A stretch of DNA of 64,000 nucleotides from Bradymonadia bacterium. Lineage in GTDB: Bacteria > Myxococcota_A > Bradymonadia > UBA7976 > UBA1532. The DNA lies in NCBI GenBank assembly GCA_044376085.1, contig JBILLN010000005.1:1125-65124 (forward strand), given 5' to 3'. Position numbers and translations under genes: made by a program. The stretch's first letter is position 1, and the number at the start of each line of letters is the position of its first letter. Positions 19,359 through 58,699 of this stretch are shown here, piece by piece. The notes below the pieces were generated by a model. The model was given only the letters and a program-made list of their open reading frames with translations, had not been told where the DNA came from and did no database searches.

Positions 19359-19396
19359 TCGACACATACAGAAACCTTTCGGAATGTTCCCGCTCC

Positions 19397-41373: not shown

Positions 41374-43227
41374 ATGTCTTCCCTTCGTTTCGCCGATCTC
41401 GATCTCTCGGCGCCGATGCTCTCTGCCCTCGAGGCCATCGGATACCTCCAGCCCACGCCCGTCCAGTCCACCGCCATCCCGTTGATCGGCGCCGGGCGGG
41501 ACCTCATGGTCCAGTCCCAGACGGGGACCGGGAAGACGGCCGCCTTCGGCATCCCGCTCATCGAGCGCCTCGGCGCCGAGCCCGTCCGTGGGATTCAAGC
41601 CCTCATCCTCGCGCCGACGCGTGAACTCGCGAAACAGGTCTCCGACGAACTGAACCGTCTGGCGGCGCACCACGGTGTCCAGAGCGTGGCCATCTACGGC
41701 GGCGCGTCGATGGACAAGCAGATCGCAGAAATCAAGTTCGCCCACATCGTCGCCGGCACACCGGGCCGCGTTCTCGACCACCTGCGGCGCGGCACCTTGC
41801 GCTTCAACGGGTTGAAGATGGTCGTGCTCGACGAGGCCGACGAGATGCTGAGCCTGGGGTTCGCCCGCGAACTCGAACAGGTCATGAGTTTCGTGCCGAC
41901 CGAGCGCCAGACGCTCCTGTTCTCCGCGACGATCCCGGAGGACATCAAGAGCTACGCGCAGCGGTACATGCGCCAGCCCGAGTTCGTCAGCCTCATCGAG
42001 CAGAATGTGGGGGCGGACGACGTCGAACACCATTACTACATGGTGAGCGGCGTGGGTCGCTCCAAGGACCTCGTTCAGGTCATCGAATTCGAGGAGCCGG
42101 GCAACGCGATCATCTTCACCAACACCCGAGCCGACAGCGAGGTCGTTGCTCAGTTCTTGAAGCGGCAGGGCTACGAGGCCGAGTACCTCAACGGCGACCT
42201 GCCGCAGCGGGACCGAGAGGCCATCATGGCCCGCACCAAGGACAAGTCACTGCGTTTCCTGGTGGCCACGGACATCGCGGCGCGCGGTATCGACATCAGC
42301 CAGTTGAGCCATGTCATCAACTTCACGCTGCCCGAGTCCCCGGAGGTCTACATCCACCGGACGGGCCGAACGGGGCGCGCCGGCCACAAGGGGACGGCGA
42401 TCAGCCTGATCGGTCCGAGAGAGATCGGGGTCTACTACTATCTCAAGCGGATCTACAAGGTCGCCCTTCAGGAGCGCAGCGTGCCGACCCAGGCCGAGAT
42501 TGACCTCAAGAAGGCGGAACGTCGGACCGATTCGCTCGTCCACGAGATCTTCGCCCTGCATCACGGACGGCCGCCCCACAGCGCGGAACTCCGGGCGCAG
42601 GCGGTCCGACTGCTCGAGCGCGACGACGCGATCGAGGTGATGGAGGCCTTGCTGGCGGCCTTCCATCAGCGGGGTCAGCGCCCGGTCGCCGCCGCGTCGG
42701 TCCCGGCGAGCGGACCCCTGGCAGCCGTGCCTCGACCGGAGACCATCGCGCCGGGCGGGCGCCCCGACACGCTCGCCAGCGTTGCGGAGCGAGTCGCCAT
42801 CGTGCAGAGCGAGTTCCGCGGCCTTCCCCCCGAACGTGACGCCGCGCCGCGTCGGAGTCCCTCACCGATGCCCGACCGCACGGCGCTTCCCCCCGCCCCC
42901 CCGGCGCCGCCCCCCCCTGCCCCCCGAACGGCGCCCGAGCCGCAGGCAGACAGCCCGGCCCCCCGTCTGCCCCCCCTCGGCGCCGGCCAGGCCCGGTTGT
43001 GGGTCAACGTCGGCGATCGTGACGGACTCAGCGCCGAAGAGCTGCGCACGTCCCTGGCCGATCTCGCCGGACTCGACCCGGAAGACGTCCTGGACGTTGA
43101 CCTCCGGTTGCGACACAGCTACGTGGTTGTGCTCGATGACTACGCCCGAGACGTCGTCGACGCCCTCGATGGAGAGCGCCTCGACGGAAAGAAACTGCGC
43201 GTCGAACTGGCAAAGGAAGAAGCCTGA
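41374..43227 (+). CDS. DEAD-box ATP-dependent RNA helicase with a C-terminal Gly/Pro-rich and DbpA-like extension
   Basis: Q-motif PTPVQ, Walker A SQTGTGKT, DEAD (VLDEADEML), SAT and HRTGRTGRAG motifs. It lies 11 nt after the previous stop. Confidence 0.9.
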   Translation: MSSLRFADLDLSAPMLSALEAIGYLQPTPVQSTAIPLIGAGRDLMVQSQTGTGKTAAFGIPLIERLGAEPVRGIQALILAPTRELAKQVSDELNRLAAHHGVQSVAIYGGASMDKQIAEIKFAHIVAGTPGRVLDHLRRGTLRFNGLKMVVLDEADEMLSLGFARELEQVMSFVPTERQTLLFSATIPEDIKSYAQRYMRQPEFVSLIEQNVGADDVEHHYYMVSGVGRSKDLVQVIEFEEPGNAIIFTNTRADSEVVAQFLKRQGYEAEYLNGDLPQRDREAIMARTKDKSLRFLVATDIAARGIDISQLSHVINFTLPESPEVYIHRTGRTGRAGHKGTAISLIGPREIGVYYYLKRIYKVALQERSVPTQAEIDLKKAERRTDSLVHEIFALHHGRPPHSAELRAQAVRLLERDDAIEVMEALLAAFHQRGQRPVAAASVPASGPLAAVPRPETIAPGGRPDTLASVAERVAIVQSEFRGLPPERDAAPRRSPSPMPDRTALPPAPPAPPPPAPRTAPEPQADSPAPRLPPLGAGQARLWVNVGDRDGLSAEELRTSLADLAGLDPEDVLDVDLRLRHSYVVVLDDYARDVVDALDGERLDGKKLRVELAKEEA

Positions 43228-43228
43228 G

Positions 43229-43768
43229 ATGTCCTCGACCTCCGCTCGTTTGCTCGCCCTCGCGGGGGCCCTCTTCGTCGTCCCGGCCTGCAAGCCCAAA
43301 ACGACGCCTCCTCCGGTGGACCCGGCCGAGGCAGCGGCGGCCAGCCTGCCACCGGCGCGCATCGACCTTCCGGCCCCCATCAAGCTCGAAGGCACGCTGC
43401 CCCCGGATACCCACGCCGACGGCAAGATGCGCATCGATGGACTCCTCGCTCGGCGCGAGAAGTACATCGGCAAGAAGATCGTCGTCCGCGGCTTCCTCGT
43501 CGAGAAGTACGAGCCGCCCAAGGACGCCAAGCGATTTCTTCAGAACCACGGATACTTGGCGGATACGCCCGCGGGGGGCGACAAGCGCCTGCTCCTGACC
43601 GGCCTGCGCGACAGCGTGCGAGATGCCCTCGTGGTCGGGACGGAGTACGTCATTACGGGCGAGTTCGCCCAGCGGTCCGACGATGGGTTCGTCAACTCTC
43701 TCGGGCTGCTCATCTTCGAGAGCGCCGAAGGTCTCGAGATTCCGGACGAGAAGAACAAGAAGCGCTGA
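43229..43768 (+). CDS. Small lipoprotein
   Basis: The ATG lies 1 nt after the helicase stop. MSSTSARLLALAGALFVVPACK is a lipobox. Confidence 0.5.
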   Translation: MSSTSARLLALAGALFVVPACKPKTTPPPVDPAEAAAASLPPARIDLPAPIKLEGTLPPDTHADGKMRIDGLLARREKYIGKKIVVRGFLVEKYEPPKDAKRFLQNHGYLADTPAGGDKRLLLTGLRDSVRDALVVGTEYVITGEFAQRSDDGFVNSLGLLIFESAEGLEIPDEKNKKR

Positions 43769-43795
43769 CGCGCCCGCCCCACCGGTCGGCTGCGG

Positions 43796-45259
43796 TCATC
43801 CGCGGCTTGCCGGCTTCTCCATCGTCAGGATGATGCGGTTGCTCTCCGGACCGAAGAACGCGCCCGGGGTGTGCCGACTGCCCGAAATCTCACGCACCTC
43901 GAAGCCGACCATCTGCGCCATCCGCACGAGTTCGTGAACGGCGTAGAGGCGCATCGAGATGTTGTACTCACGCTGCATGCCGTCCGCGAAAACGGCAAAG
44001 CGTTTGATCGCGAGTCGGCTGGTGAGGTGGTCGAACTCGATGTCCTCCTGGACGAGGCACCCGTCGCCTTCCCACCAGTTGCGGGTTGGAATCCCCCGCA
44101 GCGCATAGTCTCGATTCGCGACGTCCAGGATGAAACGACCGCCCCGCTTCAGGGCGTCGTGGACGCCCCGGAGGACCATGAGGTTCTCCGGCTCGGTGAA
44201 GAACCCGAAGCTGCTGTCGAAGCAGAAGACCCCATCGAAGACATCTCGGAAGTTGAGATCACGCATGTCGCCATGCACGAACTTGATCGCCAGGGCGTTC
44301 GCTTGGGCTCGCCCGAGAGCGGCCTTGAGCATGTCGAGGCTCAGATCCAGCCCGACGACCTCGTAGCCCTTCGCCGCCAGCGGTACGGTGTGGCGCCCGT
44401 ATCCGCAACAGAGGTCGAGCACACGGGCGCCCCCCGAGAGCTTCAGCGCCGACTCGATCGTGTTCACCTCGCCCGCCGTCGAAGGGCCGAGTCGCTGGGG
44501 GTGCGCGAGGAAGTAGTCGTTCCCGAAGAGCTCCGCGAACCAGGCGCCGGCCGTCGGCGTTCGTCGAACGGTCGCACTCTTTCGAGCGAGACTCAGAATC
44601 GTGTCCACGGCCAGCGCGGGGTCGAGTTCGACGGCGTTCTCGGGGAGGCCGATCCGGGCGGCGGGTTCGGTGTCGTCCGGAATCTCGATGCTCTCGTCGG
44701 CGTCGGGGGCCGGGGTTTCGAGACGCGGCGGGCCACTGAGCGCGACGCCCGAGGGCGGCGGCGGCGGCGGCGGGGCCGGCGGAGCGACCGGCATCGACAC
44801 CGGAGGGGGGGCCACGACCGGCGGCGGCGCGACCGTCTCCACAGGCGGTTTCGGGGCATCGTCCACTCGAAACGCATCCGTCAGGACGACATCGTATCCG
44901 GCACCGTCGGCCTGAGCGGATGGTGACTCGGCGCGCGCCTGCGTCAACTCGAACTCGACGGCATCGGCGGCGGGGCGGTTCGCGCGTCGGCCCGCGGCGC
45001 CCGAGGCGGACCCTCCGCGACGTCGTTTGAACACGGCGGCGAGCGGCGCCTGCTCGGGCTCACCCAACGAAAAAAGCGGCGAAGCACCGGGGTCGTCGGC
45101 CGGTGCCGGGGCCGTCGGACCCGCAGCATCCTCCGGCGCCGCCGGCTGGGCGTCCCCATCGTTCGCGCGAGGGGTGTCGGGCTTCTCGTCTGACTCGTCC
45201 GGCAGCACTGATCCGTCCGCGTTTCTGAGGGGGGGGTGCCCCCTGCCGGTCACGGCCAA
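43796..45259 (-). CDS. Class I SAM-dependent methyltransferase with a 230-aa disordered Pro/Ala-rich N-terminus
   Basis: RVLDLCCGYGRH (motif I), VVGLDLS, FVHGDM and GRFILDV motifs. Confidence 0.8.
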   Translation of the reverse strand: MAVTGRGHPPLRNADGSVLPDESDEKPDTPRANDGDAQPAAPEDAAGPTAPAPADDPGASPLFSLGEPEQAPLAAVFKRRRGGSASGAAGRRANRPAADAVEFELTQARAESPSAQADGAGYDVVLTDAFRVDDAPKPPVETVAPPPVVAPPPVSMPVAPPAPPPPPPPSGVALSGPPRLETPAPDADESIEIPDDTEPAARIGLPENAVELDPALAVDTILSLARKSATVRRTPTAGAWFAELFGNDYFLAHPQRLGPSTAGEVNTIESALKLSGGARVLDLCCGYGRHTVPLAAKGYEVVGLDLSLDMLKAALGRAQANALAIKFVHGDMRDLNFRDVFDGVFCFDSSFGFFTEPENLMVLRGVHDALKRGGRFILDVANRDYALRGIPTRNWWEGDGCLVQEDIEFDHLTSRLAIKRFAVFADGMQREYNISMRLYAVHELVRMAQMVGFEVREISGSRHTPGAFFGPESNRIILTMEKPASRG

Positions 45260-45303
45260 TTCACGGCATTGACGCCCACTCTAACACGCGCGGAGCATCT
45301 TCC

Positions 45304-46161
45304 CTACTTTTGTGACCGACGGCGCGCGATCGCCTGACCCATGCGAATGGTCATCCCGGGTTCGAGCGCCTCGAAGTCGATCTCCCCACGAGCGAACAGG
45401 ACGATGGCCGTGGATCCGAGGTGGAAGACGCCGAGTTCATCGCCGCGCCCGATGGTGATCGGGGGGGCGTAGGTCTTCGAACCGCCGGGCCCCCCACGGT
45501 TCGTCGCGACCGCGTCATCGTACGTCGCGGTAATGTGTCCGACCGAGGTGGCACCGACCATGATTGTCGCAACCTCACCGGCAGGGCCACGAACGAACGT
45601 GACCAGACGTTCGTTCACGCAGAACAGATCCTCGATGTTCTCGACTGCAGCGCGGTTCACGGGCCAAAGGTGCCCGGGCACGTGGCGCGCCTGGAAGATC
45701 TCGCCCTCGACCGGGTGGTGCACGCGGTGGTAGTCGCGCGGACTGAGGTAGATCGTGACCCACGCACCATTCTTGAAGCGCTCACCATCTGCGGTGTCGG
45801 CCAGGAGCTCGTCGAGGCGGTAGTGTCGCCCCTTGGCCTGAAGCAACGTGCCGTCTTCGACGTAGCCGAAGTTCAGGACGCGGCCATCGGCCGGCGAGAC
45901 CGCAACGCCCGGACGTCGGTCGACGGGCCGGGCGCCGAGACGAAGGCGCCGGACGAAAAACGAGCCGAGCGAGTCGAAGGAGGACAACGGCTGCTCGGTC
46001 TCTTCGAGGTCAATGTCGTACAGCCGGGCAAAGGCTCGCACGCTCAGCTGCGCGATCGGTTTCGGAAGCGGCGCGTGAGCAGCAGCGCCGATCACGCGGC
46101 TCCAGGCGTTCTTCGGCAGCAGGCGCAGCGCGCCGAGGTAGAGGGCGTCCTTCACGGTCAC
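45304..46161 (-). CDS. psd: Phosphatidylserine decarboxylase proenzyme
   Basis: YLSPRDYHRVH and the FHLGSTAI self-cleavage site are present. The N-terminus LRLLPKNAWSRVIG resembles E. coli Psd. GTG at 46161 overlaps the giant-TPR stop as GTGA. Confidence 0.9.
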   Translation of the reverse strand: MTVKDALYLGALRLLPKNAWSRVIGAAAHAPLPKPIAQLSVRAFARLYDIDLEETEQPLSSFDSLGSFFVRRLRLGARPVDRRPGVAVSPADGRVLNFGYVEDGTLLQAKGRHYRLDELLADTADGERFKNGAWVTIYLSPRDYHRVHHPVEGEIFQARHVPGHLWPVNRAAVENIEDLFCVNERLVTFVRGPAGEVATIMVGATSVGHITATYDDAVATNRGGPGGSKTYAPPITIGRGDELGVFHLGSTAIVLFARGEIDFEALEPGMTIRMGQAIARRRSQK

Positions 46162-49100
46162 TCCAGGCCGGCCATTGCCGCCTTGCTCGCGGCGTGCTCA
46201 GGGTCGTACCCCAGCGCACGATTGAACATGTCCTTCGCCTTCCGCGGGTCGCCCAGCTTCAGCCGCAGAATGCCCAGGTGATAAAAGATGTCCACCCGCT
46301 GCTCGTTGGACTCGATGTTCATCTGGTGCAACAGCATGGTCTGGAAGATCTTCAGCGCTTTGTCCCAGTTCTCCTTCCGGAAGTGCAGCTTCCCGAGTCG
46401 GAACAGGTTCGGCAGGTAGGTCGCGTCGTAGTCGAAGCACTCGGTGTAGTACTGCAGGGCGGCCGCCTCGTCGCCCTTCTCCTCGGCGACGCGGCCCATC
46501 TGGAAGTTGTACGTAAAGAGTTCCTTGAATCGACGCTCGCCCTTCAGGCGCTCGATGGTCTTCAGGAGCACCGGCTCGGCGTCCTGGAACCGACCAGCGC
46601 CGAGGTAGGCTGCCAGCAACGCGTCGTTGACCTTGCCGTCGGTGGGCGCCAGCGTCGCAGCCTCCTCGAGCGCGACGATGCGTCCGGCGGCGTCGTTCTG
46701 CTTCTCCGCCAGGGCGGCCATCTGGAGAAGCACCGGCACCCGTTCCTTGCCTTCGAGCCCGGCGCGGCGCTGCCCGAGCAGTGCGAAAGCCTCTGCGTCG
46801 TCCCCGGCCGCTTCGGCCATGCGCAGCAACGCGTCGAGCGCTTCGACGTCCTGGGCTTCGGACACCGCCTGGTACAGGCGTTCCTTCGCTTCGGAGACCC
46901 GGTCGAGGCGCTCGAGGTAGAGCAGGCCGAGACGCCGGAGGGCTTCGGCCCGTGCCGCCCCCGGTTCGCCGTGCTCGATGGCTCGCGACAAGGCCGCCGC
47001 GCACTTCTCCCACTCTCCGCTCTGCTCGTGGAGCCGCGCCAGGACCGTGAGGGCACGAAGGTGATTGGGTTCTGCGTCGAGAACCTGGTTCAGCGCGGAG
47101 ACGGCCAGCTCGGCGTCCATCAGGTGAGCCTGGGCGACGTCGGCGATCTGCACCAGCGTCGCGACCGTGCCGACGGTGTCGTTGGCTCGGCGGAGAACGT
47201 CGACGTGCTCGCGCAACATGTCCACGAGGTCGAACCAGCGAGACGTCTGGGTATAGAGCCGCTCGAGGTGCCCCACCGTCTCCGTGTCGGCCGGGGCGGC
47301 CGCATGCACCTGTCGGTAGTACTCGATGGCCGACTCGGGGTTGGAAAGATGGACGTCTGCCGTCTGGCCGAGCGCCCGCAGCAGGGGTACCCGGTCTTCC
47401 TCGGAGGTCGTCAGCGTGAGTTCCTTCACCAGAACATCCTGGAGGCGGTCCCAGGACGCCTGGCTTTCGTAGAGTGTCCGCAGCGCCCGCACTGCGTCGA
47501 CGTCGTCGGGCGCGAGTTCGAGGACCTTCTCGAGAGATTCGGCCGCCAGCGTCGGATCGGAGAGCTGGTCCCGCGCGATGGAGGCCATTCGTCGGTGCAG
47601 CATCGCGAGGTCGTCGGCGTCGAACGTGTTCTCGGCCTTGCGGCTGAGGACGCCGTGGAGCGCCGCCCAGTTCTCCGAAAGTTCGTGGAGGTCTTCCAGG
47701 GCCGCCAAGGCCCCCGCGTCCGTATCGTCGAGCGCGAGGACCTCCTCGTAGGCCGCGACGGCACCCGGGATGTCGTTCAGCTTGTCGGCGGAGAGCGCCG
47801 CCAGCAGACGCAGGCGCTCGCGCTTCTCGTCGAGGTCATAAATCAGCTCTGCCTTGCGACGGTGAATCTCCGCAAGTCGCGGCCAGACCTCGGACTCCGA
47901 GTAGATCTCCTCCAGCGCGTCGAGTGCCTTCGCATTGTTCGGGTCGATCGCCAGGACGGCCACGTAGCGCTCCGCCGCCCGGTAGATGTCGCGCAGGCGC
48001 CCCCTGCTCCAGGTCGCGACGTCGAGCAGATCGGCGATCCGCATCTCCGGGTCGCTCAGGCGCGGTTGAACGGCATCGACCGCAGCCGCCAGCCGTTCCC
48101 AGGCGCCCCGCTCCGTCGCCACGCGGACGAGGGACTTGCGGATGTCCTCGTCCAGCGGATTCGCGTCGAACGCCCGAAGGAGACACTCCAGGGCACCGTC
48201 GGCGTCCTGGAGCCGCGTCTCGCGGAGTTCCGCCGAGGTCATCCAGAGGCGGGCCTGTTCGAGGTGATCCGAGGTCAGCTCGATCCGCATTTCCGCCAGG
48301 ATGGCCAGTTTGTCGGCCGCGTTCCGTTCACGGTAGATCGGCTCGAGGACGTCGGAAATCGACGCCCGGTGCTCGAGGTGAACGGCCAGTCGTTCCATCG
48401 CCTCGAGGGCGAACGCGTGTTCCGGACGCTCCCACAGAATCGACCGGTACAGCTCGATGGCCTGCGGGACCTCATTGCGGACCACCTCCAGGAGGTACCC
48501 GAGGCGGAACCGGAGGTCCGTGCTGTCGTCGTCCCCGCCGAGCTCGATCTCTCGGCGGAGGACCTCGATGAGCGCGTCCCAGTCCTGGCGAGCCTGGTAC
48601 AGCCGGTCGAGCGCGCTCAGCGCCTCCCGATCGTATGGGTCACCGCGCAGCACAGCCTGCCAGGCATCGATGGAGCGATCGGGCCGGGAGAGTTTGGCGT
48701 CGTACAGCCGCGCCAGGCGGCGGTTCAGGCCGCGCCCGACCTCCGCGTCGAGCGCCGCGGGGATCTGCTCCTCGTACGCGCCGGCCAGCGCCTCGTGGGC
48801 GCTCAGCTCGTCCGCGAGCTCGTGCAGGGCCCCGACGATCTCTTCGTCGGCCGGATCCTCCTGGAACGCACGCAGATAGCTCTCGAAGGCGCTGCGCGGA
48901 TGCTTGAGAACCTCGTACCGGAGCCTGGCCAGTCGTTTGAGGAGTTCGAGGCGCTCCACCCGGTCGTCGATGTCGAGCAGTTGCAGCTCGTAGACCCGCG
49001 CGAGCAACTCGGGCTGCCCCTTGGCCGCGTAATGGGGTTCGAGCATCCGGCTGGCGCCGAGCCGGTAGCGCTCGTGCCCGAGAAGGCGCTCCAGGGCCGT

Positions 49101-52100
49101 CCGGGCGTCGGTGAACTCCGGATTCCGGCCCAGAATCTGGCCGTAGAGCTCAATCGACTGCTCGACCTGACCCAGATGGTGCTCGAGGACGTCGGCGATT
49201 CGCAGGTCCAGCGCGTCGACGCGGCGGGCGGCCGCGGGCCGTTTGTCTTCGGCGATCAGGGCACGCTCGGTCTCGAGGAGGTCGATGAGCTCGCCCCAGC
49301 GGAGTTCTCGGCTGTAAAGGCGGTCGAGGGCCTCCATCGAGCGACGGTCCCGCGCGTCCGTCTCCAGAACGGAGCGGTAGGTGAGGATCGTCTCGTTCGC
49401 GTCGTTGAGCTGCTCTTCGCAGACCCGAGCGATGCGGAAGAGAATCTCCTTCCGCTCATCGTCGTCCGCAGCGACCTCGAGCTTCTCCCGAAGGACCTCG
49501 ACGAGGAGCGTCCAGTTGCTGGTCCGCTCGTAGAGGCGGATCAACGCCTCGATCGCATTCTGGTCCTCGGGATCCTCCTCGAGGACACGACGGTAGGTCT
49601 GGATGGCCTGGTCCGGGCGATCGAGAACGTCCTCCCAGATCTCGCAGATCCGGTAGAGGAGTTCCTTCTTCTCCATGACGTCCCGCGCGAAATCGGCCTT
49701 CCGCGACAGAACCGTGACGAGGTCGTGGTAGCGCCGTTCGGCCGCAAAGAGGCGTTCGAGGGCGTTGAGCGACTCGGCGTTGGCCTCGTCGATCAGCAGC
49801 ACCCGCCGGTAGCAGTCGATCGCGCGCTCCGCATCTTTGAGGCGGTGATCGTAGGTCCGCGCGACCTTCAGCAGAATCTGAGTCGCGCCATCGAGATCGT
49901 CGTACCCCTCGATCCCGCTCAGATACGCCTCGACGAGCGGCTGCCAGGCACCCTCGGACTCGGCGAGCCGGTCGAGGTCGCGCTGCAGATCGAGGTTGCC
50001 GTAGTCCTCGGCGAACGCGCGGGCAAACGCCTGGAAGGCGGCCGCCGGCGCCGCCAGCTTCTCCTCGTAGGTCTTGGCGATGCGGACCAGCGTCTCCAGT
50101 CGCCGCCAGCGGTCGGTCTCGGAACCGAGTTGCACCTCGAGGGTTCCGATCCAGTCGTGCCACTGGCCACGCCCCTCGTAGATCGGCTCGAGGACCTCGG
50201 CGACCTTGCGGCGCAGGGGATGGTCGGGCGCTCTGTCCGCGAGCTCGAGGATCATGCGCTCGAGGGCCGCCAGCGACGGCTCGTGGTCGGGGACTTCGTC
50301 CCGGAGGACGCCGTGCCAGGCGTCGACGGCCCCTTCCGGATCGCCGAGGCGCCCCTCGAGGACTTCGCCGAGTCGGTGCAGCAGGGCGGCACGCGGTCCC
50401 GGCTCCGTCGCGAACCGGATTTCTTCGCGGAGCAGGTCGGCGAGATCCGGCCACTGTTCGCGGGCCGTGAAGAAGCGCTCGAGGGCTCTGAAGGCCTGCG
50501 GATTGTCGTTCTCGATCTCGAGGACCTGCCGCCAGATGCCGATGGCCCGCGGCACATCGTCGAGGACGTCCTCGAGCAACTGGCACACCTTGAAGAGCAG
50601 ACCCTTCTTCTCGTCGATGTCGGTGGCGTCGTCCGCGAGCCGGAGGTACAGCCCGACGAGATCGTCCCAGGCGGCCGTCCGGCTGTAGAGCTCGATGAGC
50701 GCGCCGACCGCCGCGCGGTTCTCCGGCTGAAGTCCGAGAACCTCCTGGTAGACGGCACGGGCGGCCGCATCCTGGCCCCGCTGGAACTCCTCGGTGAGGC
50801 CGAGCTCGAGCAGGAGGGCCACCTTCAGATCGACCGCGTCGAGACCGTCGATGACCTCGCGAAGGAGGCCGGCGAGCGCGTCGAAACGCCCCGCCTTCTG
50901 CGCGAGTCGGCGCAGGGCCTCGCGGTTCTCCTCGTTCTCCGGCTGAACGTGCAGCACGCGCCCACAGGTCTCGAAGGCCGCAGCCGCGTCCCCGAGACGG
51001 GTCTCCTGGAGCCGTGCGATTTCGCGGAGGACTTCGACCCGCTCGATGGGGTCCTCGCGCAGGTTGGACTGCCGAACCTCGAGGACGCGGACCAGCCGGA
51101 CATCGTCCCCCTCGGCCCGGTAGACCGGTTCGAGGATGGCGCCGACGGCCATGCGCTCGACGCCGACGGCCGCTGCGGCCTCGTCCGATTCGAACAGCGC
51201 GTCGAGGGCGCCCCGCGTCGCGGCGTGGCCCGGAAGGTCCTGGAGAATGCCGGAATACAGGTCGAGCGCCCGAGGTCCTTCGGAGAGGAAACGCTGGCAC
51301 GTATCCGCAAGCCTGAATTCGATCTCCGCCTGCGCGGCGCGGTCCGTCACGATGGAGGCGCGATGCTCGTAGAGCGCGGCCACCTCCGGCCACCGCTCGG
51401 ACGTCGAGAGAAGCCTCTCGAGTTCGTCCAGCGAGAACGCGTCGCGGTCGTCGATCAGCAGAACGCGTCGATGCGTCTCGACGGCGGCCGGCAGGTCGGC
51501 AAGGCCGGTCTCGCACAGATTCGCGATGTGGTAGAGCAGCAGCTTGCGCTCGTCGGCATCGGCGGTGAGCGCGAGTTTCCGATCGATGATCTCGATCTGG
51601 TCCCCCACGTCCCCGGTCTGCTCGTAGAGGGCCTCGAGCGCATCGAGGGCGGCCAGGTTCTCCGGCTCGATCAGCAGCACCTCGCGGTACTCCTCGATGG
51701 CCCGGGCCGCGTCTTCGACCTGGTCGCGCAGGATGGCCGCACGCGTCGAGCGCAGCGCCACGGCCCGCCCTGGCGCGATCACGACGCCTTCCCCGAAGAG
51801 CTCGACCAGGGCCTCCCACGCGCCGACCAGCGAAGCCAACCGAACCAGTTCGTCTTCGAACTCGGCGCGCGCCTCGCCCTGACGCCACGCCTCGGCCAAG
51901 GCATTCAGGGCCGCGCCCGGGGCCTCGAGTCGCTGTTCTTCGATCTCCGCCACGCGGACGAGCGTCGCGACCCGCTCCGTCGCTTCGTCCAGGTCCTGGA
52001 GCGTGCCGAGGAGCACGTCCCGGAGACGGGACCACTCCCCCGCACGCTCGTAGATCGGGGTCAGAATCCGGGCCGCCGTCAGCCGAACCTCGGGCGTCTC

Positions 52101-55100
52101 CAACAAGGCTTCGAGGGACTGCCGGGCGCCGCGGTGCCCCGGCGTGCGCGTCAGCACCGCCCGGAACGCAGCGATCGCGCGTTCCGGATCGCCGAGTCGG
52201 GTCCGGAGGAGCTCACCGGTCCGATACTCGAACTCGTCCTGGGTCTCCGCCTCGGCCGCCAGCGCGCGTTCCCGCTCCAGAATGTCGAGAAGATCGACCC
52301 ACGAACCGAGGGTCTCGAACAGACGGTCGAGGGCTCCGAGCGCCGCGACGTCCTGCGGGTCGTCCGTCAGGACATCCTGGTAGATCCGCACCGCCTCGGT
52401 CGGACGCTCCAGGCGAGTTTCCGTGACCTCGGCCGCCCGGAACGCCAATCGCTTTCTGGACTCGAGTCCGTCGCTGCGCTCGGCGTGGTCGAGCAGGACC
52501 GCGACGAGGTCCGACCAGCGCTCGACGCCCGGATACAGGCGCTCCAGGGCTTCGTGGGCCCGCAGGTCCGCCGGCGTGATCTCCGTACGAATGTGCTCGA
52601 AGGTCTCGATCGCGAGGTCCGTCCGGCCCAGGAGCGTCTCCTGCAGTTCGGCCAAGCGGAACGCCAGGGCCGCGCTCTCCGTCGGCGTGTCGGCGAGGCG
52701 AACCCGTGTCGCCACGACCTCGACGAGTGCGTCGGCATCCCCCACCCGCTCGAAGAGGCGGTCGAGACTCAGCAGGGCCGCGGCGTCCTCGGACCACTCC
52801 TCGAGGATGCGGCGGTTGTAGCCGATCGCCAGCGTCAGATCGCCGACCTTGGTCTCCTGAATCTCGGCCACCCGACCCAGCATCTCGCGGCGCAGCGCCG
52901 GTTCGAGGTCGAGCGCCCGGTCGTCGTCCAGGCCCTGCGCCAGCACGTCACCCAGTTCGGCCCACGCCTCGAGGTTCGCCGCGAGGCGGCTCATCTCGGC
53001 CAACAGACCCGGCTCGCCGTAGGCCTCACGGAAGGCCGCGGCGTACTCGGCGAATGCCGTCCGCTGCGCGCCGTCGCGCGCCTCGGACAAACGCGCGATG
53101 CGGGTGTGGAGCTCGACCCGGTCTGCGGGTGAAGTGGCATCGCCGAGTCGGACCCGACAGATGCCGATCTCTTTGCGCCAGTCGTCCCGCGAGACGTAGA
53201 TCGGCTCCAGAACGTCACACGCCCGCGTCCGAATCGCGACGTCCTCCGGACGCGCATGGGCCCCGAGAAGGTGCTCGAGGGCTTCGACCGTGGGATCGTG
53301 GTCCGGCGCCAACACCAGGACCTCGGCGTATCGCTCGAGCGCCTCTTCCACGCGTCCGAGATGGCGCTCCAGGACGAGCGCGAGCTGGTAGGTCAACGGT
53401 ACCCGCTGCTCGGGCGAGGCATCGGTGAGCCGACTCGAGAGGAGATCCGCCAGCTCGCTGAAGCGGCCCGTGTTCCGGAAGATGCGCTCCAGAGCAGCCA
53501 GCGCGCGTTCATCACCCGGTGTGGCCTCGTGAATGCGCCGATAGGCATCGATCGCGGCCTCGGGGTTCTCGAGCACCTCTTCGAGCAGATCACCGATCCG
53601 GAAGAGCAGCGCCACGCGGGCCGAAGTGTCTTCGAGCAGCAGCAGCTTGCGCTCGCAGATGTCCACCAGGCGAGGCCAATCCTCGAGCCGGGTCGTCAAG
53701 CGGTCCACGGCATCGAGGAGTTCGAGGTCGTCACCGACGGCGCCGAGGACGCGGTCCAGAACGTCCCGGGCGTCGGCGAATCGGGCGAGGCGTTCTTCGA
53801 GCAGCTCCGCGTAGCGGCGGCTGTACATCGCGGCCAGCGGGACGTCCGCCCCCGCCTCGGCCCCGCCGAGCGCGAACCCGCCGTAGAGGCTGGCCAGCGC
53901 GTCCCACGACCCGAGTTCGCCCGCCAGCCGCTCGAGTTCCCGCCGGACCGAACCGTCCTCCCGGTCCTCGCCGAGCAGCCGCTGCCACGTCTGAAATGCC
54001 CCGCGCGGATCGGAGAGCTGCTGTTCGCGCAGATGGGCGACTTCGCGGAGGACACGGCAGCGGAAGGCCGGATCGTCGGAGCCTTCCACCTGAAGCTCCA
54101 GCACCTGGCGCAAGGAGGACCACTTCTCCGCGCGACGCATCTGAGGCTCGAGGACCCGCGCGGCGTCCGCGGAGAGGTCCGTCTCCAAGAACCGCTCGAG
54201 CGCGTTGATCGCGCCGAGGTGGTCGGGGACCTGGTCGAGCACGGCCGCGTACCGGCCGAGAGCCGATGCCGCCATCCCGCGGCGCTCATCGAGCTGGCCG
54301 AGACGGAAGAGCAGGGCGGCCACATCGGCGACCGCCGTCGTCAGCGCCCGTTCGGCCTCCACCCAGCGTGTGATCGCCGCCAGATCCCCCCCGCGCTCGG
54401 CAATGCGCTGCAGGCCGCGGATCGCCTCGAGGTTCCCCCGGTCGAGGGCATGCAGCTGTTCCCAGGCCGCCTGGGCGGCGTCGGCGTCGTCCCGGACCGT
54501 CTCGTGGAGCTGCCCGATCTCCGCCAGGATGGCGGCCTGCACCGGGAGCGCCTCCGCGAGCTCGAGCTGTCGCGTGTAGACGGCGAGGAGTTCATCCCAC
54601 TGTCCGAGGCGCTTGTACAACGCCACGAGAGCGTCGAGGACCTCCGGGGCGTCACCCGCCAACGCCCGGATGCGCTCGAGATGCCCGGCCGCGTCGGTGA
54701 AGCGTCCCAGTTCCTCCGCGCAGGCCTCGGCCAGGACGCGCCGCATCCGCACCTCGACCTCGACGGCCGGGTGAGCATCCGCAAGCCCCCCGAGCAAAGT
54801 GACGAGGCCTTCCCAGTCGCCCACCAGCGCCGCCGTGCGGCGGGTCTCGATCAAGAGATCCGAGCGCTCGGGCGCGGCTTCGAGCGCCCGCGCGAAGTAG
54901 GCGAACGCGTTCGGCAGGTCGCCTCGACGGACCTCGTGGACCTGCGCGAGATCGATCATCAGCGCGACCGGATCCTCCGGATTCTGGCGGAGCAGAACCT
55001 CGAGGACGGCGACGAGGGCGTCCCACGCGCCGACCTCGACGTAGTGCGGCGCCAGCGTGCGCGCCGCCTCCACGTGGTCGGGATCTTCGGAGAGGACGCG

Positions 55101-57686
55101 CTCCCAGCACTCGACGGCCGCCGCTTCGTGATGAAGGTTGACCCGGCAGATGCGAGCCATGCGTTTGTAGAGCTCGACGCGGACCTCGACCTCGACCGCC
55201 TGTGCCGCGCTGCCCGAAAGCAGCCGGATGAACCCTTCCCAGTCGCCCCGTTCGCCGTAGAGGCCCTCCAGCGACGTCCAGTCGCCCCGACGCAGGTAGA
55301 GTTCCCGGAGGTAGTTCTCGGCGTGAAGGTCGCCCGGCGCCAGACGGAGCACGGCACGCCACGTCTCGGCCGCGCGGTCCTCGTCGCCGAGTTTCTCGGC
55401 GTAGACGTTGCCGAGCTTCTTCAGCCAGGCGACGCGACCGGCATCGTCCTCGGCACGGCCCGCCTGCTGAGCGAAGAGGTGGGCGAGGTCGAGGTACCGC
55501 TCCGTCCGCACGTAGAGCTGCTCGAGGGACTGCCAGGCCTTGACGACCCCTTCGTCCGCTTCGATGACCGATCGCCACAGTTCGATGGCCTCGTCCCGCT
55601 CTTCGAGCCGTTCCGCGGCGATCCGGGCCATCTCCATCAGGCGCTCGACACGGGCCGCCCCTTCGAGGAGACCGAGCTGCTTGCGGTACGTCTGGTAGAG
55701 CGCGCGCCAATCCTTGCGGTGTCGGTAGATGTCGATCAGTTGGGCGATCGCGGCTTCGTCGCGCGGCCGCAACTCGAGGATCGCTTCGAGATGCGAAATG
55801 GCCTGATTCGGGTTCGAGAACTTGTCGATCCACAGCTGCGAGATCTGCCGCTGGAGACCGACGAGCGTCTCTTCGTCCCCGGCAGCCTGCGCGGCCTCGA
55901 CGCGGCGTTTGTAGATGCCGATGAGGTCGTTCCAGCGCGCACTCTCGATGTACCGCGCCTGCAGCGCATCGAGCGCTTCGGCGTTGGTCGGATCCACCTG
56001 GAGCACCTGGTTGTAGGTGTTGACGACCATGACCTCGAGGTTGAGCTGGTCGCGGTAGATCTCGATCATCCGCCGGTAGATGCCCACCCGGGCCTCGACC
56101 TGGGCCGGGCCATCGCCCGTGATCAGATTCAGGTCCTCTTTCAGGAACTCGAGCAGCGCGTTCCACTTCGCCGTCTGGAAGAAGAGACGGCGCAACGCAT
56201 CGCGGGCGACCTCGTGGTCGGGCTTGAGCTTCAGGATCGACTTCCAGATGTCGATCGCCTTCTCGGCGTTGTCGATCTCGCGCTCGGCCACCCGAGCCAT
56301 CTGCAGGCCGATCTCGATCCGGGCTTCGTTGGTCGACTCGATGGCCTGCCGCGACGCCAACGTGGCGAGGAGCTTCTTCCAGTCCTGCTGCGCCGTGTAG
56401 AACTCGGCGTAGAACTGGAGCATGAGGACGTTGCGCGGATCGTTGAGTTTGATGCGCTTGAAGTAGTTCTCGGCCTGCTCGAAGTCGCCGACCTTCTTCC
56501 ACAGGATCATGGCGATCTGCACGAGCATGGCGCTCTCGTTGCCGGCACGCGCGCGGGCACGCAGGGCCGCTTCATAGATCGCGACGAGGTCCAGCCAGCG
56601 TTCCTGATCGCTGTAGAAGTCGACACAGTAGCCGAGAGCCTCCTGGTCGACCGGCTCGAGCGCGAGGACTTCGCGATACCAGCGGCTGGCGGCCTCCGCG
56701 TCCTGCAACTCCTGCCGCGCGATCTGCGCCAGGCGCTGGACGATCGCGAGGCGGTCGGCCTTCCGGGTGGTCTGCTCCACCCGACCCTCGAGGTGCTTGA
56801 TGAGCGACTCCCACTGGCCGTTCAGTTCGTAGAACTGCTCCAGGAAGATGCGCGCCGGCTCGTTGCGGGGGTCGGCGTCGAGGACGAGCCGGAGGGTCGC
56901 CTCGATGGCCGGATCGTCGGGCTGTTCCTTGAGCCAGAGTTCGGCTGCCTGAAGCTGGAGGCCGGCGCGCTGCCGGGGGTCGCGCGTCGCTTCGGCCTGA
57001 GCGATCAGCGCGTCGTACCGCGCACGGGCGTCTCCCCGGACCGCCTCGAGGAGTTCCGCGAAGTCCGCCGCGCGGGGGTGATCCGGGACGAGGCGCAGCG
57101 CCGACCGGACGCACAGCGCCGCATCCCCGGCTTCACCGAGTCCGCCCCGGCACACCTCGGCCATCTCGAAGTAGAGTTCGGCCTGCGCCCCGGGTTCGGC
57201 CGTCGCCTGGAGTTCCAGGCTGTAAAGCTGGAGAACGAGTCGCCAGTTCTGCTGCTGCCAGTAGACCGCACGGGCCGCTCGCAACGCGTCGACGCGCTGC
57301 GGGTCGAGCTTGAAGGCGCGCTGATAGCGCATCATCGCCTGTTCGGGCGAACCGAGGACCTCCTCGTGGATGCGACCGACGATGAGTGCGATCTCCGACT
57401 CGACGCCGGGCTCGCCCACCTCGGCGCCGTAGATTTCGAGCTTGGTGGCCAGCTCGGCCCAGGCCGCCGTCGCTTCGTCCGCCGGCAGTGCCGCCCATCG
57501 CTCGCCGTACAGGGCCACCACGCCGGCGAAATCCCGGTGACGCAAGAGTGCGTCTTCGAGCCGCAGCAGGGCCTCGGCGTCGTCCGGATTGCTCTGCAAC
57601 TGGTCGCGGTAGGTTTCGAGCTCGTTGTCCATGGGTGTGCGCTTCTCGGGACTGAGGACTGAAGGCTTCGGCGGAACGTCGACCAC
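46158..57686 (-). CDS. Giant all-TPR-repeat protein (about 3842 aa)
   Basis: An 11.5-kb uninterrupted frame encodes dozens of 34-aa TPR-like units with a W-LG-Y-A-P pattern and no signal peptide. The alternative start ATG 57632 gives MDNELETYRDQ. The antisense ORFs 46194..53132 and 53256..57662 are shadows. Confidence 0.85.
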   Translation of the reverse strand: MVDVPPKPSVLSPEKRTPMDNELETYRDQLQSNPDDAEALLRLEDALLRHRDFAGVVALYGERWAALPADEATAAWAELATKLEIYGAEVGEPGVESEIALIVGRIHEEVLGSPEQAMMRYQRAFKLDPQRVDALRAARAVYWQQQNWRLVLQLYSLELQATAEPGAQAELYFEMAEVCRGGLGEAGDAALCVRSALRLVPDHPRAADFAELLEAVRGDARARYDALIAQAEATRDPRQRAGLQLQAAELWLKEQPDDPAIEATLRLVLDADPRNEPARIFLEQFYELNGQWESLIKHLEGRVEQTTRKADRLAIVQRLAQIARQELQDAEAASRWYREVLALEPVDQEALGYCVDFYSDQERWLDLVAIYEAALRARARAGNESAMLVQIAMILWKKVGDFEQAENYFKRIKLNDPRNVLMLQFYAEFYTAQQDWKKLLATLASRQAIESTNEARIEIGLQMARVAEREIDNAEKAIDIWKSILKLKPDHEVARDALRRLFFQTAKWNALLEFLKEDLNLITGDGPAQVEARVGIYRRMIEIYRDQLNLEVMVVNTYNQVLQVDPTNAEALDALQARYIESARWNDLIGIYKRRVEAAQAAGDEETLVGLQRQISQLWIDKFSNPNQAISHLEAILELRPRDEAAIAQLIDIYRHRKDWRALYQTYRKQLGLLEGAARVERLMEMARIAAERLEERDEAIELWRSVIEADEGVVKAWQSLEQLYVRTERYLDLAHLFAQQAGRAEDDAGRVAWLKKLGNVYAEKLGDEDRAAETWRAVLRLAPGDLHAENYLRELYLRRGDWTSLEGLYGERGDWEGFIRLLSGSAAQAVEVEVRVELYKRMARICRVNLHHEAAAVECWERVLSEDPDHVEAARTLAPHYVEVGAWDALVAVLEVLLRQNPEDPVALMIDLAQVHEVRRGDLPNAFAYFARALEAAPERSDLLIETRRTAALVGDWEGLVTLLGGLADAHPAVEVEVRMRRVLAEACAEELGRFTDAAGHLERIRALAGDAPEVLDALVALYKRLGQWDELLAVYTRQLELAEALPVQAAILAEIGQLHETVRDDADAAQAAWEQLHALDRGNLEAIRGLQRIAERGGDLAAITRWVEAERALTTAVADVAALLFRLGQLDERRGMAASALGRYAAVLDQVPDHLGAINALERFLETDLSADAARVLEPQMRRAEKWSSLRQVLELQVEGSDDPAFRCRVLREVAHLREQQLSDPRGAFQTWQRLLGEDREDGSVRRELERLAGELGSWDALASLYGGFALGGAEAGADVPLAAMYSRRYAELLEERLARFADARDVLDRVLGAVGDDLELLDAVDRLTTRLEDWPRLVDICERKLLLLEDTSARVALLFRIGDLLEEVLENPEAAIDAYRRIHEATPGDERALAALERIFRNTGRFSELADLLSSRLTDASPEQRVPLTYQLALVLERHLGRVEEALERYAEVLVLAPDHDPTVEALEHLLGAHARPEDVAIRTRACDVLEPIYVSRDDWRKEIGICRVRLGDATSPADRVELHTRIARLSEARDGAQRTAFAEYAAAFREAYGEPGLLAEMSRLAANLEAWAELGDVLAQGLDDDRALDLEPALRREMLGRVAEIQETKVGDLTLAIGYNRRILEEWSEDAAALLSLDRLFERVGDADALVEVVATRVRLADTPTESAALAFRLAELQETLLGRTDLAIETFEHIRTEITPADLRAHEALERLYPGVERWSDLVAVLLDHAERSDGLESRKRLAFRAAEVTETRLERPTEAVRIYQDVLTDDPQDVAALGALDRLFETLGSWVDLLDILERERALAAEAETQDEFEYRTGELLRTRLGDPERAIAAFRAVLTRTPGHRGARQSLEALLETPEVRLTAARILTPIYERAGEWSRLRDVLLGTLQDLDEATERVATLVRVAEIEEQRLEAPGAALNALAEAWRQGEARAEFEDELVRLASLVGAWEALVELFGEGVVIAPGRAVALRSTRAAILRDQVEDAARAIEEYREVLLIEPENLAALDALEALYEQTGDVGDQIEIIDRKLALTADADERKLLLYHIANLCETGLADLPAAVETHRRVLLIDDRDAFSLDELERLLSTSERWPEVAALYEHRASIVTDRAAQAEIEFRLADTCQRFLSEGPRALDLYSGILQDLPGHAATRGALDALFESDEAAAAVGVERMAVGAILEPVYRAEGDDVRLVRVLEVRQSNLREDPIERVEVLREIARLQETRLGDAAAAFETCGRVLHVQPENEENREALRRLAQKAGRFDALAGLLREVIDGLDAVDLKVALLLELGLTEEFQRGQDAAARAVYQEVLGLQPENRAAVGALIELYSRTAAWDDLVGLYLRLADDATDIDEKKGLLFKVCQLLEDVLDDVPRAIGIWRQVLEIENDNPQAFRALERFFTAREQWPDLADLLREEIRFATEPGPRAALLHRLGEVLEGRLGDPEGAVDAWHGVLRDEVPDHEPSLAALERMILELADRAPDHPLRRKVAEVLEPIYEGRGQWHDWIGTLEVQLGSETDRWRRLETLVRIAKTYEEKLAAPAAAFQAFARAFAEDYGNLDLQRDLDRLAESEGAWQPLVEAYLSGIEGYDDLDGATQILLKVARTYDHRLKDAERAIDCYRRVLLIDEANAESLNALERLFAAERRYHDLVTVLSRKADFARDVMEKKELLYRICEIWEDVLDRPDQAIQTYRRVLEEDPEDQNAIEALIRLYERTSNWTLLVEVLREKLEVAADDDERKEILFRIARVCEEQLNDANETILTYRSVLETDARDRRSMEALDRLYSRELRWGELIDLLETERALIAEDKRPAAARRVDALDLRIADVLEHHLGQVEQSIELYGQILGRNPEFTDARTALERLLGHERYRLGASRMLEPHYAAKGQPELLARVYELQLLDIDDRVERLELLKRLARLRYEVLKHPRSAFESYLRAFQEDPADEEIVGALHELADELSAHEALAGAYEEQIPAALDAEVGRGLNRRLARLYDAKLSRPDRSIDAWQAVLRGDPYDREALSALDRLYQARQDWDALIEVLRREIELGGDDDSTDLRFRLGYLLEVVRNEVPQAIELYRSILWERPEHAFALEAMERLAVHLEHRASISDVLEPIYRERNAADKLAILAEMRIELTSDHLEQARLWMTSAELRETRLQDADGALECLLRAFDANPLDEDIRKSLVRVATERGAWERLAAAVDAVQPRLSDPEMRIADLLDVATWSRGRLRDIYRAAERYVAVLAIDPNNAKALDALEEIYSESEVWPRLAEIHRRKAELIYDLDEKRERLRLLAALSADKLNDIPGAVAAYEEVLALDDTDAGALAALEDLHELSENWAALHGVLSRKAENTFDADDLAMLHRRMASIARDQLSDPTLAAESLEKVLELAPDDVDAVRALRTLYESQASWDRLQDVLVKELTLTTSEEDRVPLLRALGQTADVHLSNPESAIEYYRQVHAAAPADTETVGHLERLYTQTSRWFDLVDMLREHVDVLRRANDTVGTVATLVQIADVAQAHLMDAELAVSALNQVLDAEPNHLRALTVLARLHEQSGEWEKCAAALSRAIEHGEPGAARAEALRRLGLLYLERLDRVSEAKERLYQAVSEAQDVEALDALLRMAEAAGDDAEAFALLGQRRAGLEGKERVPVLLQMAALAEKQNDAAGRIVALEEAATLAPTDGKVNDALLAAYLGAGRFQDAEPVLLKTIERLKGERRFKELFTYNFQMGRVAEEKGDEAAALQYYTECFDYDATYLPNLFRLGKLHFRKENWDKALKIFQTMLLHQMNIESNEQRVDIFYHLGILRLKLGDPRKAKDMFNRALGYDPEHAASKAAMAGLE

Positions 57687-57838
57687 TGACGACGCTTGGA
57701 TCGGACGGGACGGTTCGGACGCCGTCGAAAACGGGCTGTCCGGACGGGCGCGGATGGTACAAATCCGGACTGCGGTTCACAAGACGCTTGGCGGCCCGCC
57801 GCGCGGCTTCGCGCCGCGTCCGGCTCCGCTTCGCCGCG

Positions 57839-58699
57839 ATGCGGCACCGACGCTCCCGGGTGGAGCGCGCCCCTCCCGGAGGGTCCCTTCTGTCCCCCGT
57901 ACCCGTCACCCTCGCGTGGAACGGCGTCCCCTGCCCGACCGGCGAGCCCCCGTGGCTCGGGGCGGCGTCGGACGACCTGCCCGGTTCGGACGGCCCCTTC
58001 GAGACCATTCGCGTGGTCCGGTGCCGGCCGACGGCCTTCGACGCTCACCGCGCGCGCATCGAGGGGACGCTCACCGCGCTCGGCTGGCCCGTGCCGGACT
58101 TGACGGGCGCCCCGGAGTTGATCGCCTACCTCGCCCGCGACCTCGAAGAAGCCCGGGCCCGCCTGACGGTCGTCCGATGCTCGCCCGCGGTCTTCGGGTG
58201 GGCGCTTCAGGTCGGCCCGGTGTCGCCGGCGCTCCCGGCGCGGCGCCGGGGCGTGCGGGCGCGGACCCGACCGTCACCGGTCGAAGCCGGCAATCCGGAA
58301 TGGAAGACGGTCGACCGGGCTCGCGCGCTGGCCCGATTGGCGGCAGCGGTGGACGACGCCGAGGTGCTCCTCGCCGACGACTCGGGGCACCTCCTGGAAG
58401 GGTCGACGTGGAATCTCTTTGCGGTCGTCGCCGGCGTCCTCGTCACCCCACCACTCGATGGCCGGTGTCTTCCCGGCGTCACCCGAGGCCGGGTCCTGGC
58501 CGCGGCGGCCCGTCTCGGGTTCGCGCACGTCGAGGCGCCGCTGACCCGCCAGGAACTCCTCCGCCGCGCCGCGGAGACCTTCGTCACGAACGCCTTGCTC
58601 CCTCTGGCACCGTTGTGCTCCTTGGACGACCAACCACTCCCGGGAGCCGGCGCGATGGCGACCTGTCTGCACGAGGCGATCGATGCGCCTCCCCCATGA
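57839..58699 (+). CDS. Class IV aminotransferase-fold protein (aminodeoxychorismate lyase-like)
   Basis: PFETIRV, EGSTWNLF and LPGVTR blocks are present. The start is uncertain: the track gives 57788 and 57839 is chosen here. Confidence 0.55.
   Translation: MRHRRSRVERAPPGGSLLSPVPVTLAWNGVPCPTGEPPWLGAASDDLPGSDGPFETIRVVRCRPTAFDAHRARIEGTLTALGWPVPDLTGAPELIAYLARDLEEARARLTVVRCSPAVFGWALQVGPVSPALPARRRGVRARTRPSPVEAGNPEWKTVDRARALARLAAAVDDAEVLLADDSGHLLEGSTWNLFAVVAGVLVTPPLDGRCLPGVTRGRVLAAAARLGFAHVEAPLTRQELLRRAAETFVTNALLPLAPLCSLDDQPLPGAGAMATCLHEAIDAPPP

Follow-up and report, generated by a model that had tools for sequence, protein, structure and literature searches.

A candidate sister-clade relative of the giant gliding protein GltI, encoded in overlap with psd in a Bradymonadia lineage

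Introduction

GltI (AgmK, MXAN_4863) of Myxococcus xanthus is a 3,822-amino-acid (aa) cytoplasmic tetratricopeptide repeat (TPR) protein that is recruited to focal adhesions and is presumed to be a long multivalent scaffold (PMC11761067, PMC3169522), with a published length of ~1,100 Å for a residue count similar to that of the protein analyzed here. Of all components of the myxobacterial focal-adhesion motor it is the one understood least, and its repeated binding sites are thought to join several motor units into a bundle. Beyond the repeat array, M. xanthus GltI carries a non-TPR helical C-terminal domain (PMC11761067). Its homologues in Anaeromyxobacter (4,074-4,104 aa), Stigmatella (4,089 aa) and Sorangium (1,774 + 2,081 aa) are all encoded in glt clusters (PMC3169522 Table S3); in M. 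xanthus, Anaeromyxobacter and Stigmatella gltJ directly follows the GltI gene, and the glt genes of M. xanthus are spread over several clusters (PMC3169522). An "exhaustive" list of 2011 includes one such giant per cultured myxobacterial genome. Here we describe a gene for an equally large TPR protein in a 64,000-nucleotide (nt) stretch, hereafter the window, of a Bradymonadia bacterium (assembly GCA_044376085.1, contig JBILLN010000005.1, positions 1,125 to 65,124 of the forward strand).

A first-pass annotation of this DNA had pointed to a likeness with AgmK/GltI and to an overlap of the giant gene with psd, the gene for phosphatidylserine decarboxylase, and had proposed that a motility or assembly scaffold might thereby be linked to phosphatidylethanolamine synthesis. 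The explanation that we favor, with an overall probability of roughly 0.65, is that the window encodes a GltI-like scaffold of a sister clade, and that its link to psd reflects the operon layout of one lineage.

Results

Coding status and repeat architecture of the giant protein

The giant gene is assigned to 46158..57632 on the minus strand, which codes for 3,824 aa and ends in the TGA at 46158-46160. The 3842-aa product read initially corresponds to the maximal open reading frame (ORF), 46158..57686 (-), which is indeed uninterrupted over 3,842 codons from a GTG at 57686; however, residue 1 of N-terminal orthologue fragments and full-length relatives (P0001, P0003, P0004 and P0019) aligns with the Met at 57632, and the true product is therefore most likely the 3,824-aa protein translated from this ATG. 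The codon-position GC of the giant frame (0.77/0.41/0.87) matches the coding signature of a genome given as 68% GC (range within the window 64-73%). Two plus-strand ORFs lie antisense within the gene, 46194..53132 (2,312 aa) and 53256..57662 (1,468 aa). Their GC pattern mirrors that of the coding frame, being highest at codon position 1 (0.87) with 0.77 at position 3, so that both are regarded as shadow frames and not as genes.

A frame of such length might be suspected of being no gene at all, either a chance ORF in GC-rich repetitive DNA or a decaying pseudogene, as high-GC DNA yields long spurious ORFs (the antisense pair among them) and as relatives are broken into pieces in some metagenome-assembled genomes (MAGs). 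Homology and coding statistics have already refuted this alternative: the GC contrast between the second and third codon positions is accompanied by hundreds of full-length, equally long homologues of the intact 11.5-kb frame, by a confident AlphaFold model and by the absence of a DNA-level repeat, while the split relatives are confined to draft assemblies.

The protein, whose composition includes 14.7% Ala, 14.6% Leu, 11.1% Glu and 10.4% Arg, is repetitive from end to end. Autocorrelation of the sequence is strongest at a lag of 72 residues, and a hidden Markov model (HMM) grown from one of its own units finds ~50 units with a 72-aa period across residues 5-3821 of 3824, with no gap longer than one unit. 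Tandem Repeats Finder detected no DNA-level tandem repeat in the gene, and the array is therefore old. In Pfam and NCBIfam the protein matches TPR-type families only (PF13174, PF13181, PF07719, PF13176, PF14559 and PF00515 above cut-off). An AlphaFold model of residues 222-589 (368 aa), built on an alignment of four orthologue fragments and eight non-overlapping internal segments, has a mean predicted local distance difference test score (pLDDT) of 92.3 and contains 20 helices, four per 72-aa unit; a single-sequence run (pLDDT 62.7) was discarded. The top Foldseek matches of this segment in the PDB, which include OGT, a consensus TPR, SPINDLY, IFT-A, APC/C, Ski3 and Ctr9, are all TPR superhelices (probability 1.0, TM-scores ~0.3). 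Both hallmarks of the TPR superfamily, a helix-turn-helix superhelix and TPR profile matches, are thus present, confirming the initial description of an all-TPR protein and showing that each unit consists of two TPR-like helix hairpins. The cytoplasmic location proposed at the same time is likewise very likely, since the N-terminus is acidic and no 19-residue segment exceeds a Kyte-Doolittle value of 1.6 (maximum 1.49), leaving no signal peptide or membrane segment.

Two clades of giant TPR proteins

Relatives were collected by a HMMER search with the last 1,200 aa of the giant protein against 1.84 billion representatives, yielding 2,025 representatives at E <= 1e-30 and hundreds of giant matches at E = 0; word-index searches, for which the first 800 aa, the last 700 aa and a profile of the C-terminus of clade B (defined below) served as queries, returned only proteins < 1,400 aa. 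Among the top 149 of the 2,025 representatives, nearly all of them 3,400-4,200 aa long, clustering on the C-terminal 300 aa separates 100 proteins including that of the window (clade A) from 49 others (clade B). The repeats of clade A reach the last residue. Clade-B proteins have a clade-A-like body followed by ~570 aa, with the homologue of the clade-A terminus located ~565-590 aa before the end and an extension made of a few extra repeats and a non-repeat domain of 305-410 aa. An HMM of this C-terminal domain recognizes 49/49 clade-B proteins and 0/100 clade-A proteins, the window protein being negative; Pfam and NCBIfam contain no model either for this domain or for GltI. The division is independent of the C-terminus, since the N-terminal 900 aa alone recover it (120 of 123 near-complete proteins have their nearest neighbor in their own clade).

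The window protein falls within clade A by both ends of its sequence. All of its nearest neighbors by the N-terminal 900 aa are clade-A members, the closest being P0019 (3,825 aa) and P0020 (3,823 aa) of uncultured Myxococcota with 52-54% identity over these first 900 aa; 88 of the 149 representatives can be aligned end to end to its last 450 aa, sharing 24-48% identity with it. The array extends to the C-terminus, the motif series DATY[ILV]PN ... QT[LM]LLHQM ... RAKDMF.RAL is present, and the length fits the clade-A range of ~3,720-3,850 aa. Clade B is found in Anaeromyxobacteraceae, in MAGs of Polyangia and in Bradymonadales (e.g., L011 10001-11017, Lujinxingia vulgaris TMQ2), and clade A also in a MAG labelled Polyangiales (L018), a taxonomic spread that suggests an old duplication rather than replacement of one form by the other along lineages. 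Database entries for clade A are generic (MBU0553488.1, for example, is named only "tetratricopeptide repeat protein [Myxococcota bacterium]"), and neither a sister clade of GltI nor the clade-A giants turned up in a search of the literature.

Two departures from the usual size were observed within the family. Stand-alone proteins of 1,150-1,330 aa (L046 10001-13894, L047 1267-5253, L048 1378-4821) resemble the C-terminal third of clade B, including the region of the non-repeat domain; as they have upstream genes of their own, a short form of the family exists. At the other extreme, P0082 comprises 7,720 aa, twice the usual length, with 41 matched stretches. A fusion of a clade-A with a clade-B protein was considered for it and rejected, as the HMM detects no clade-B domain; fusion, read-through across two genes and a genuine scaffold of double length are all conceivable for P0082.

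Relation to GltI

The point of reference for GltI itself is a contig of an Anaeromyxobacteraceae MAG (L017), on which the N-terminal 1,372 aa of a giant (P0008) are encoded in the order GltE-GltF-GltG-GltH-giant. The four upstream products score above their NCBIfam cut-offs (GltE 276.6 vs. 225, GltF/CglF 123.6 vs. 90, GltG 781.3 vs. 650 and GltH/CglE 110.3 vs. 70 bits), and a 1,181-aa TPR protein occupies the GltD position. Since it directly follows these genes, P0008 is taken as GltI by synteny. Its alignments to P0113, P0152 and P0043 of clade B (481, 406 and 369 bits) are colinear from the first residue on, whereas it matches the window protein with 180 bits (28.5% identity over 1,048 aa) and out of register. 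This one verified fragment, taken with the lengths and the C-terminal domain reported in the literature, places canonical GltI very probably in clade B, and the C-terminal domain of clade B would then be the one described for M. xanthus GltI (PMC11761067).

The AgmK/GltI likeness seen in the first pass thus stands as homology, but not as identity of type: the window protein appears to be a new, sister-clade variant of GltI. It shares with GltI the giant size (~3,800-4,100 aa) and a TPR-only make-up with neither signal peptide nor membrane segment. It is not, however, among the closest sequence relatives of the glt-cluster GltI, and no non-TPR domain follows its array, a difference that holds insofar as the clade-B domain corresponds to the published one. 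Nor does the gene lie in a G1 glt cluster, with gltD-E-F-G-H upstream and gltJ downstream. Further traits by which GltI is judged are binding of the GltG FHA and GltJ GYF domains and a requirement for gliding; the corresponding partner proteins of this organism are encoded outside the window. The 64-kb window contains no glt or agl genes: no NCBIfam Glt/Cgl equivalog reached its cut-off on the proteins scanned with NCBIfam, and the remaining ORFs, covered by Pfam only, showed no FHA, TonB-C or MotA/TolQ-type domain. This genomic criterion is a weak one, because clade-B genes of other classes also lack a downstream gltJ. Indeed, a contig scan with the consensus of the clade-B C-terminal domain yielded 12 loci (L005-L016), with no Myxococcus or Anaeromyxobacter among them, where the clade-B gene is followed by rsmI (three times), glmU or a gene for a TPR protein with a cyclic di-GMP motif, and in no case by psd or gltJ. 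A downstream gltJ was accordingly rejected as proof that clade B is GltI; other clade-B-like loci are followed by a sulfatase gene or encode the stand-alone proteins of 1,150-1,330 aa, and downstream synteny was dropped as a general criterion.

Could the window giant nevertheless be the functional GltI of its lineage, with the other Agl-Glt genes located elsewhere in the genome and clades A and B being lineage versions of one orthologue? Its size (3,824 vs. 3,822 aa), repeat architecture and clear homology would fit, as would the single giant per cultured myxobacterial genome, which is compatible with mutual exclusion of the clades; the dispersal of M. xanthus glt genes over several clusters (PMC3169522) and the clade-B genes of Bradymonadales and Polyangia MAGs, likewise without a downstream gltJ, also speak in its favor. 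We nevertheless consider this alternative unlikely, given that the window protein lacks a C-terminal domain present in every clade-B protein, that the only synteny-verified GltI is of clade B, that the 64 kb contain neither glt nor agl genes, and that the distribution of clade B over Anaeromyxobacteraceae, Polyangia and Bradymonadales, with clade A also in a Polyangiales-labelled MAG, suggests an old duplication.

The psd junction and its conservation

The gene downstream of the giant one, psd (45304..46161, minus strand), encodes a phosphatidylserine decarboxylase proenzyme of 285 aa, which is judged genuine by its matches to TIGR00163 (204.7 bits, cut-off 111.75) and PF02666 (199.4 bits, cut-off 22) and by the pyruvoyl-forming self-cleavage motif LGST (...FHLGSTAIV...). 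As first reported, the giant stop and the psd start share a 4-nt GTGA (46158..46161, minus strand): the TGA at 46160-46158 is overlapped by the GTG at 46161-46159, and the junction reads ...CTGGAG TGA CC GTG AAG.... An alternative in-frame GTG at 46155-46153 lies 5 nt after the GGAG. The third gene, 43796..45208 (-), encodes a class I S-adenosylmethionine (SAM)-dependent methyltransferase of 470 aa from a GTG at 45208. It had been placed 45 nt behind psd; the maximal ORF (487 aa, from a TTG at 45259) starts 44 nt past psd, but the 470-aa gene called on identical contigs starts at the GTG, leaving a spacer of 95 nt. Counted on the maximal 487-aa ORF, Methyltransf_25/11/31 match at residues 260-457; the ~235 aa that follow the GTG 45208 start gave no family match in Pfam and NCBIfam. 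The nearest solved relatives are generic SAM methyltransferases and N-methyltransferases; among the latter, the domain is nearest to a daptide methyltransferase, a glycine/sarcosine N-methyltransferase and a phosphoethanolamine N-methyltransferase. Judging from these relatives, psd and the methyltransferase gene may form a phosphatidylethanolamine N-methylation pair.

The three genes are presumably co-transcribed. A terminator-like hairpin just past the methyltransferase stop (43760..43775, minus strand), identified by consensus match in a scan that found 2 sites vs. 2.0 expected by chance, marks the probable end of the unit. At the other end, the gene map leaves a divergent intergenic region (57633..57787) that separates the giant gene from that of a class IV aminotransferase (57788..58699, plus strand); a promoter scan of this region found no sigma-70-like consensus, and the promoter is therefore only presumed to lie there.

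The order of giant gene, psd and methyltransferase gene was then compared across relatives. Tight linkage of psd and the methyltransferase gene to the giant gene is present in 7/7 loci of the window's subclade (the window, L001, L002, L003, L019, L020/21 and L022). The MAG loci L001 and L002 have psd directly after the giant gene and share the divergent aminotransferase gene upstream, while L003, a JGI contig whose upstream end falls inside the giant gene, shows all three genes followed by a convergent helicase gene. A metagenome scan with an A1-clade alignment added 24 more C-terminal loci, among them L019, L020/21 and L022 with psd immediately after the giant gene, and the loci L023/24 and L033/34 of a second subclade, in which psd and the methyltransferase gene are the next gene pair behind a spacer of ~360 nt. 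Psd identity decreases to ~52% within the window's subclade and is 41% in the second one. The junction reads GTGA in the window, L003, L019, L002 and L022, and TTGA in L001; L002, L022 and L001 have only the overlapping psd start, and in L020/L021 the two genes are 12 nt apart, with a GAGGA ribosome-binding site in the spacer. In every psd-positive locus psd is paired with the 470-aa methyltransferase (window 43796..46161; L003, L019-L024, L033/L034).

No psd was found within the flank of the remaining A1 loci, which represent ~13 distinct lineages; where scanned, their downstream genes encode a SpoU methylase, a low-molecular-weight phosphotyrosine phosphatase, a CNNM/CorC transporter, a YkuD transpeptidase, an LTD protein or a SocA-like antitoxin. 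Two more distant clade-A loci also lack the adjacency, their giant genes being followed in L004 by a gene for a Cys-rich lipoprotein and in L018 by one for a class IV aminotransferase. In a neighbor-joining tree of the C-terminal 300 aa, the window and all tightly coupled loci group in a single clade, and the loosely linked pair is placed elsewhere. Thus, the conservation that the first-pass annotation had proposed to check extends to the window's own subclade and, in a looser form, to one other, and most relatives lack it: the subclade has kept the coupling stably, but the family as a whole does not share it. There was perhaps an older A1 synteny with repeated losses. The aminotransferase gene, too, occurs beside clade-A giants in more than one place, upstream and divergent in the window's subclade and downstream on the same strand in L018 (4016-4912). 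Shared synteny was considered for the genes of the window and L018 and rejected, as they are not detectably orthologous by tblastn; their position is probably a coincidence.

These data bear directly on whether the scaffold is tied to phosphatidylethanolamine synthesis, e.g., by placing Psd and the methyltransferase at a membrane site, with the coupling as a reflection of that link. An overlapping or nearly overlapping stop/start in all seven subclade loci, down to ~52% Psd identity, speaks for such a tie, as do the persistence of the psd-methyltransferase pair ~360 nt away in the second subclade and the constant company of these two genes. At the same time, unrelated genes follow the giant gene in ~13 other A1 lineages, in both distant clade-A loci and in all clade-B/GltI loci (gltJ in M. 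xanthus, Anaeromyxobacter and Stigmatella), and 4-nt overlaps are routine in this genome, with two more between same-strand ORFs of the window (21445-21448 and 28017-28020, both on the plus strand). Since the adjacency is absent in most relatives and other such overlaps occur nearby, the stop/start overlap alone is weak evidence, and we regard the tie to lipid synthesis, as judged from gene order, as rather improbable; what remains of the original proposal is a lineage-specific synteny. A broader variant would make clade A a second cytoplasmic mega-scaffold, derived from an ancient duplication of the GltI ancestor, independent of the gliding motor and organizing an inner-membrane-proximal process that in this lineage includes Psd and the methyltransferase, which would be why psd is kept translationally coupled. 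This variant, too, is given little credence.

Other genes of the window

The surroundings of the giant gene are of a housekeeping kind and include pheS/T, rplT, rpmI, surE and genes for an opp-type ABC transporter, a Ser/Thr kinase, 5'-nucleotidases, a DEAD-box helicase, an HDOD protein and a LonC-like protease. The small AgmX/PglI-C-like lipoprotein that the first-pass annotation had noticed ~20 kb away, and which might have hinted at gliding machinery, is encoded at 25487..26380 (+). It has a lipobox (...ALLGAC) and one AgmX/PglI C-terminal TonB-C-like domain (NF033768, 71.5 bits, cut-off 40), so that the domain assignment is upheld; however, its score against the GltG model is 37.8 bits against a 650-bit cut-off, and its gene lies between a glycosyltransferase gene and a family-less ORF, adjoining the 5'-nucleotidase genes, with no tie to glt genes. 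At the 4-nt overlap at 28017-28020, two ORFs meet that each encode one half of a 5'-nucleotidase, in swapped order with the C-terminal half first. The Ser/Thr kinase ORF, 16973..20371 (-) (1,132 aa, kinase domain at residues 393-679), overlaps by ~1 kb with 19397..21448 (+), an ORF of 683 aa with good coding statistics; one of the two starts must be over-extended. The DEAD-box helicase gene (41374..43227, plus strand) recurs with identical sequence on at least 10 JGI/Logan contigs (L043-L045), one of them of 0.2-1 Mb, and the host organism is thus recurrent in metagenomes.

Discussion

We propose that the giant protein is a cytoplasmic alpha-solenoid of ~420 kDa, built of ~50 tandem 72-residue units. 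It belongs to a Myxococcota-wide family of giant TPR proteins, presumably scaffolds, that contains GltI/AgmK. Within this family it falls in clade A, the probable sister of the GltI clade, whose own members end with the last repeat, lack the GltI-type C-terminal globular domain and are encoded among housekeeping genes. By analogy with GltI, it most likely acts as an extended platform with many docking sites for other proteins, and its partners need not be those of the Agl-Glt motor. In this lineage the giant gene heads a three-gene unit with psd and the methyltransferase gene. As psd starts at or within 6 nt of the giant stop, its translation probably depends on ribosomes that finish the 11.5-kb frame and re-initiate upon terminating there. 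The link to psd would then be a lineage-specific operon arrangement that lies outside the function of the scaffold.

Several observations weigh against this proposal. The scaffold function is drawn from analogy; the equation of GltI with clade B relies on one synteny-verified N-terminal fragment, the concordance of N- and C-terminal clades, and the published lengths and description; and the absence of glt neighbors discriminates weakly, as gltJ is likewise missing downstream of clade-B genes outside Myxococcia. Clade A could be the GltI equivalent in lineages without clade B, and the one giant per cultured genome in the 2011 list fits such mutual exclusion. Finally, the psd synteny is kept down to 41% Psd identity in the second subclade, longer than pure chance would suggest.

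The division of GltI-like giants into two architecturally distinct clades, with the domain-less one more common among the closest representatives (100/149) and encoded away from glt genes, provides motility research with a natural comparison of the role of the C-terminal domain with that of the repeat body. It also calls for caution in genome annotation, as not every giant myxobacterial TPR protein should be named AgmK/GltI. The overlap with psd offers a possible handle for expression studies, and gives no evidence of a motility scaffold controlling lipid synthesis.

The window protein can be compared with three groups of known systems. The eukaryotic TPR scaffolds (the TPR domain of OGT, SPINDLY, Ski3, Ctr9, IFT-A and APC/C subunits) are alike in being right-handed solenoids of helical hairpins with a long binding groove. 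Their identity to the window protein is 9-19%, the TM-scores of ~0.3 indicate a different superhelical geometry, and the window protein differs from them by its 72-residue double-hairpin unit and by an array five to ten times longer. With GltI it has the giant size (3,824 vs. 3,822 aa in M. xanthus), the all-TPR make-up, the lack of a signal peptide, a homologous repeat body and a restriction to Myxococcota in common; in contrast, the window protein ends at the last TPR repeat without the ~570-aa extension and the ~300-aa non-repeat domain of the clade to which GltI is assigned, its N-terminal 900 aa cluster apart from that clade, and its gene is flanked by those for the aminotransferase and Psd rather than by gltH/gltG or gltJ. 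The closest counterparts are the clade-A giants of uncultured Myxococcota, such as MBU0553488.1 (3,823 aa) and MCD6497835.1 (3,731 aa). Their downstream neighbors vary among subclades; the proteins themselves are colinear with that of the window from end to end, with lengths within a few residues and 44-46% identity over the last 450 aa for the nearest members, and share with it the terminal motifs ...FQT[ML]LLHQM... and ...RAKDMF.RAL....

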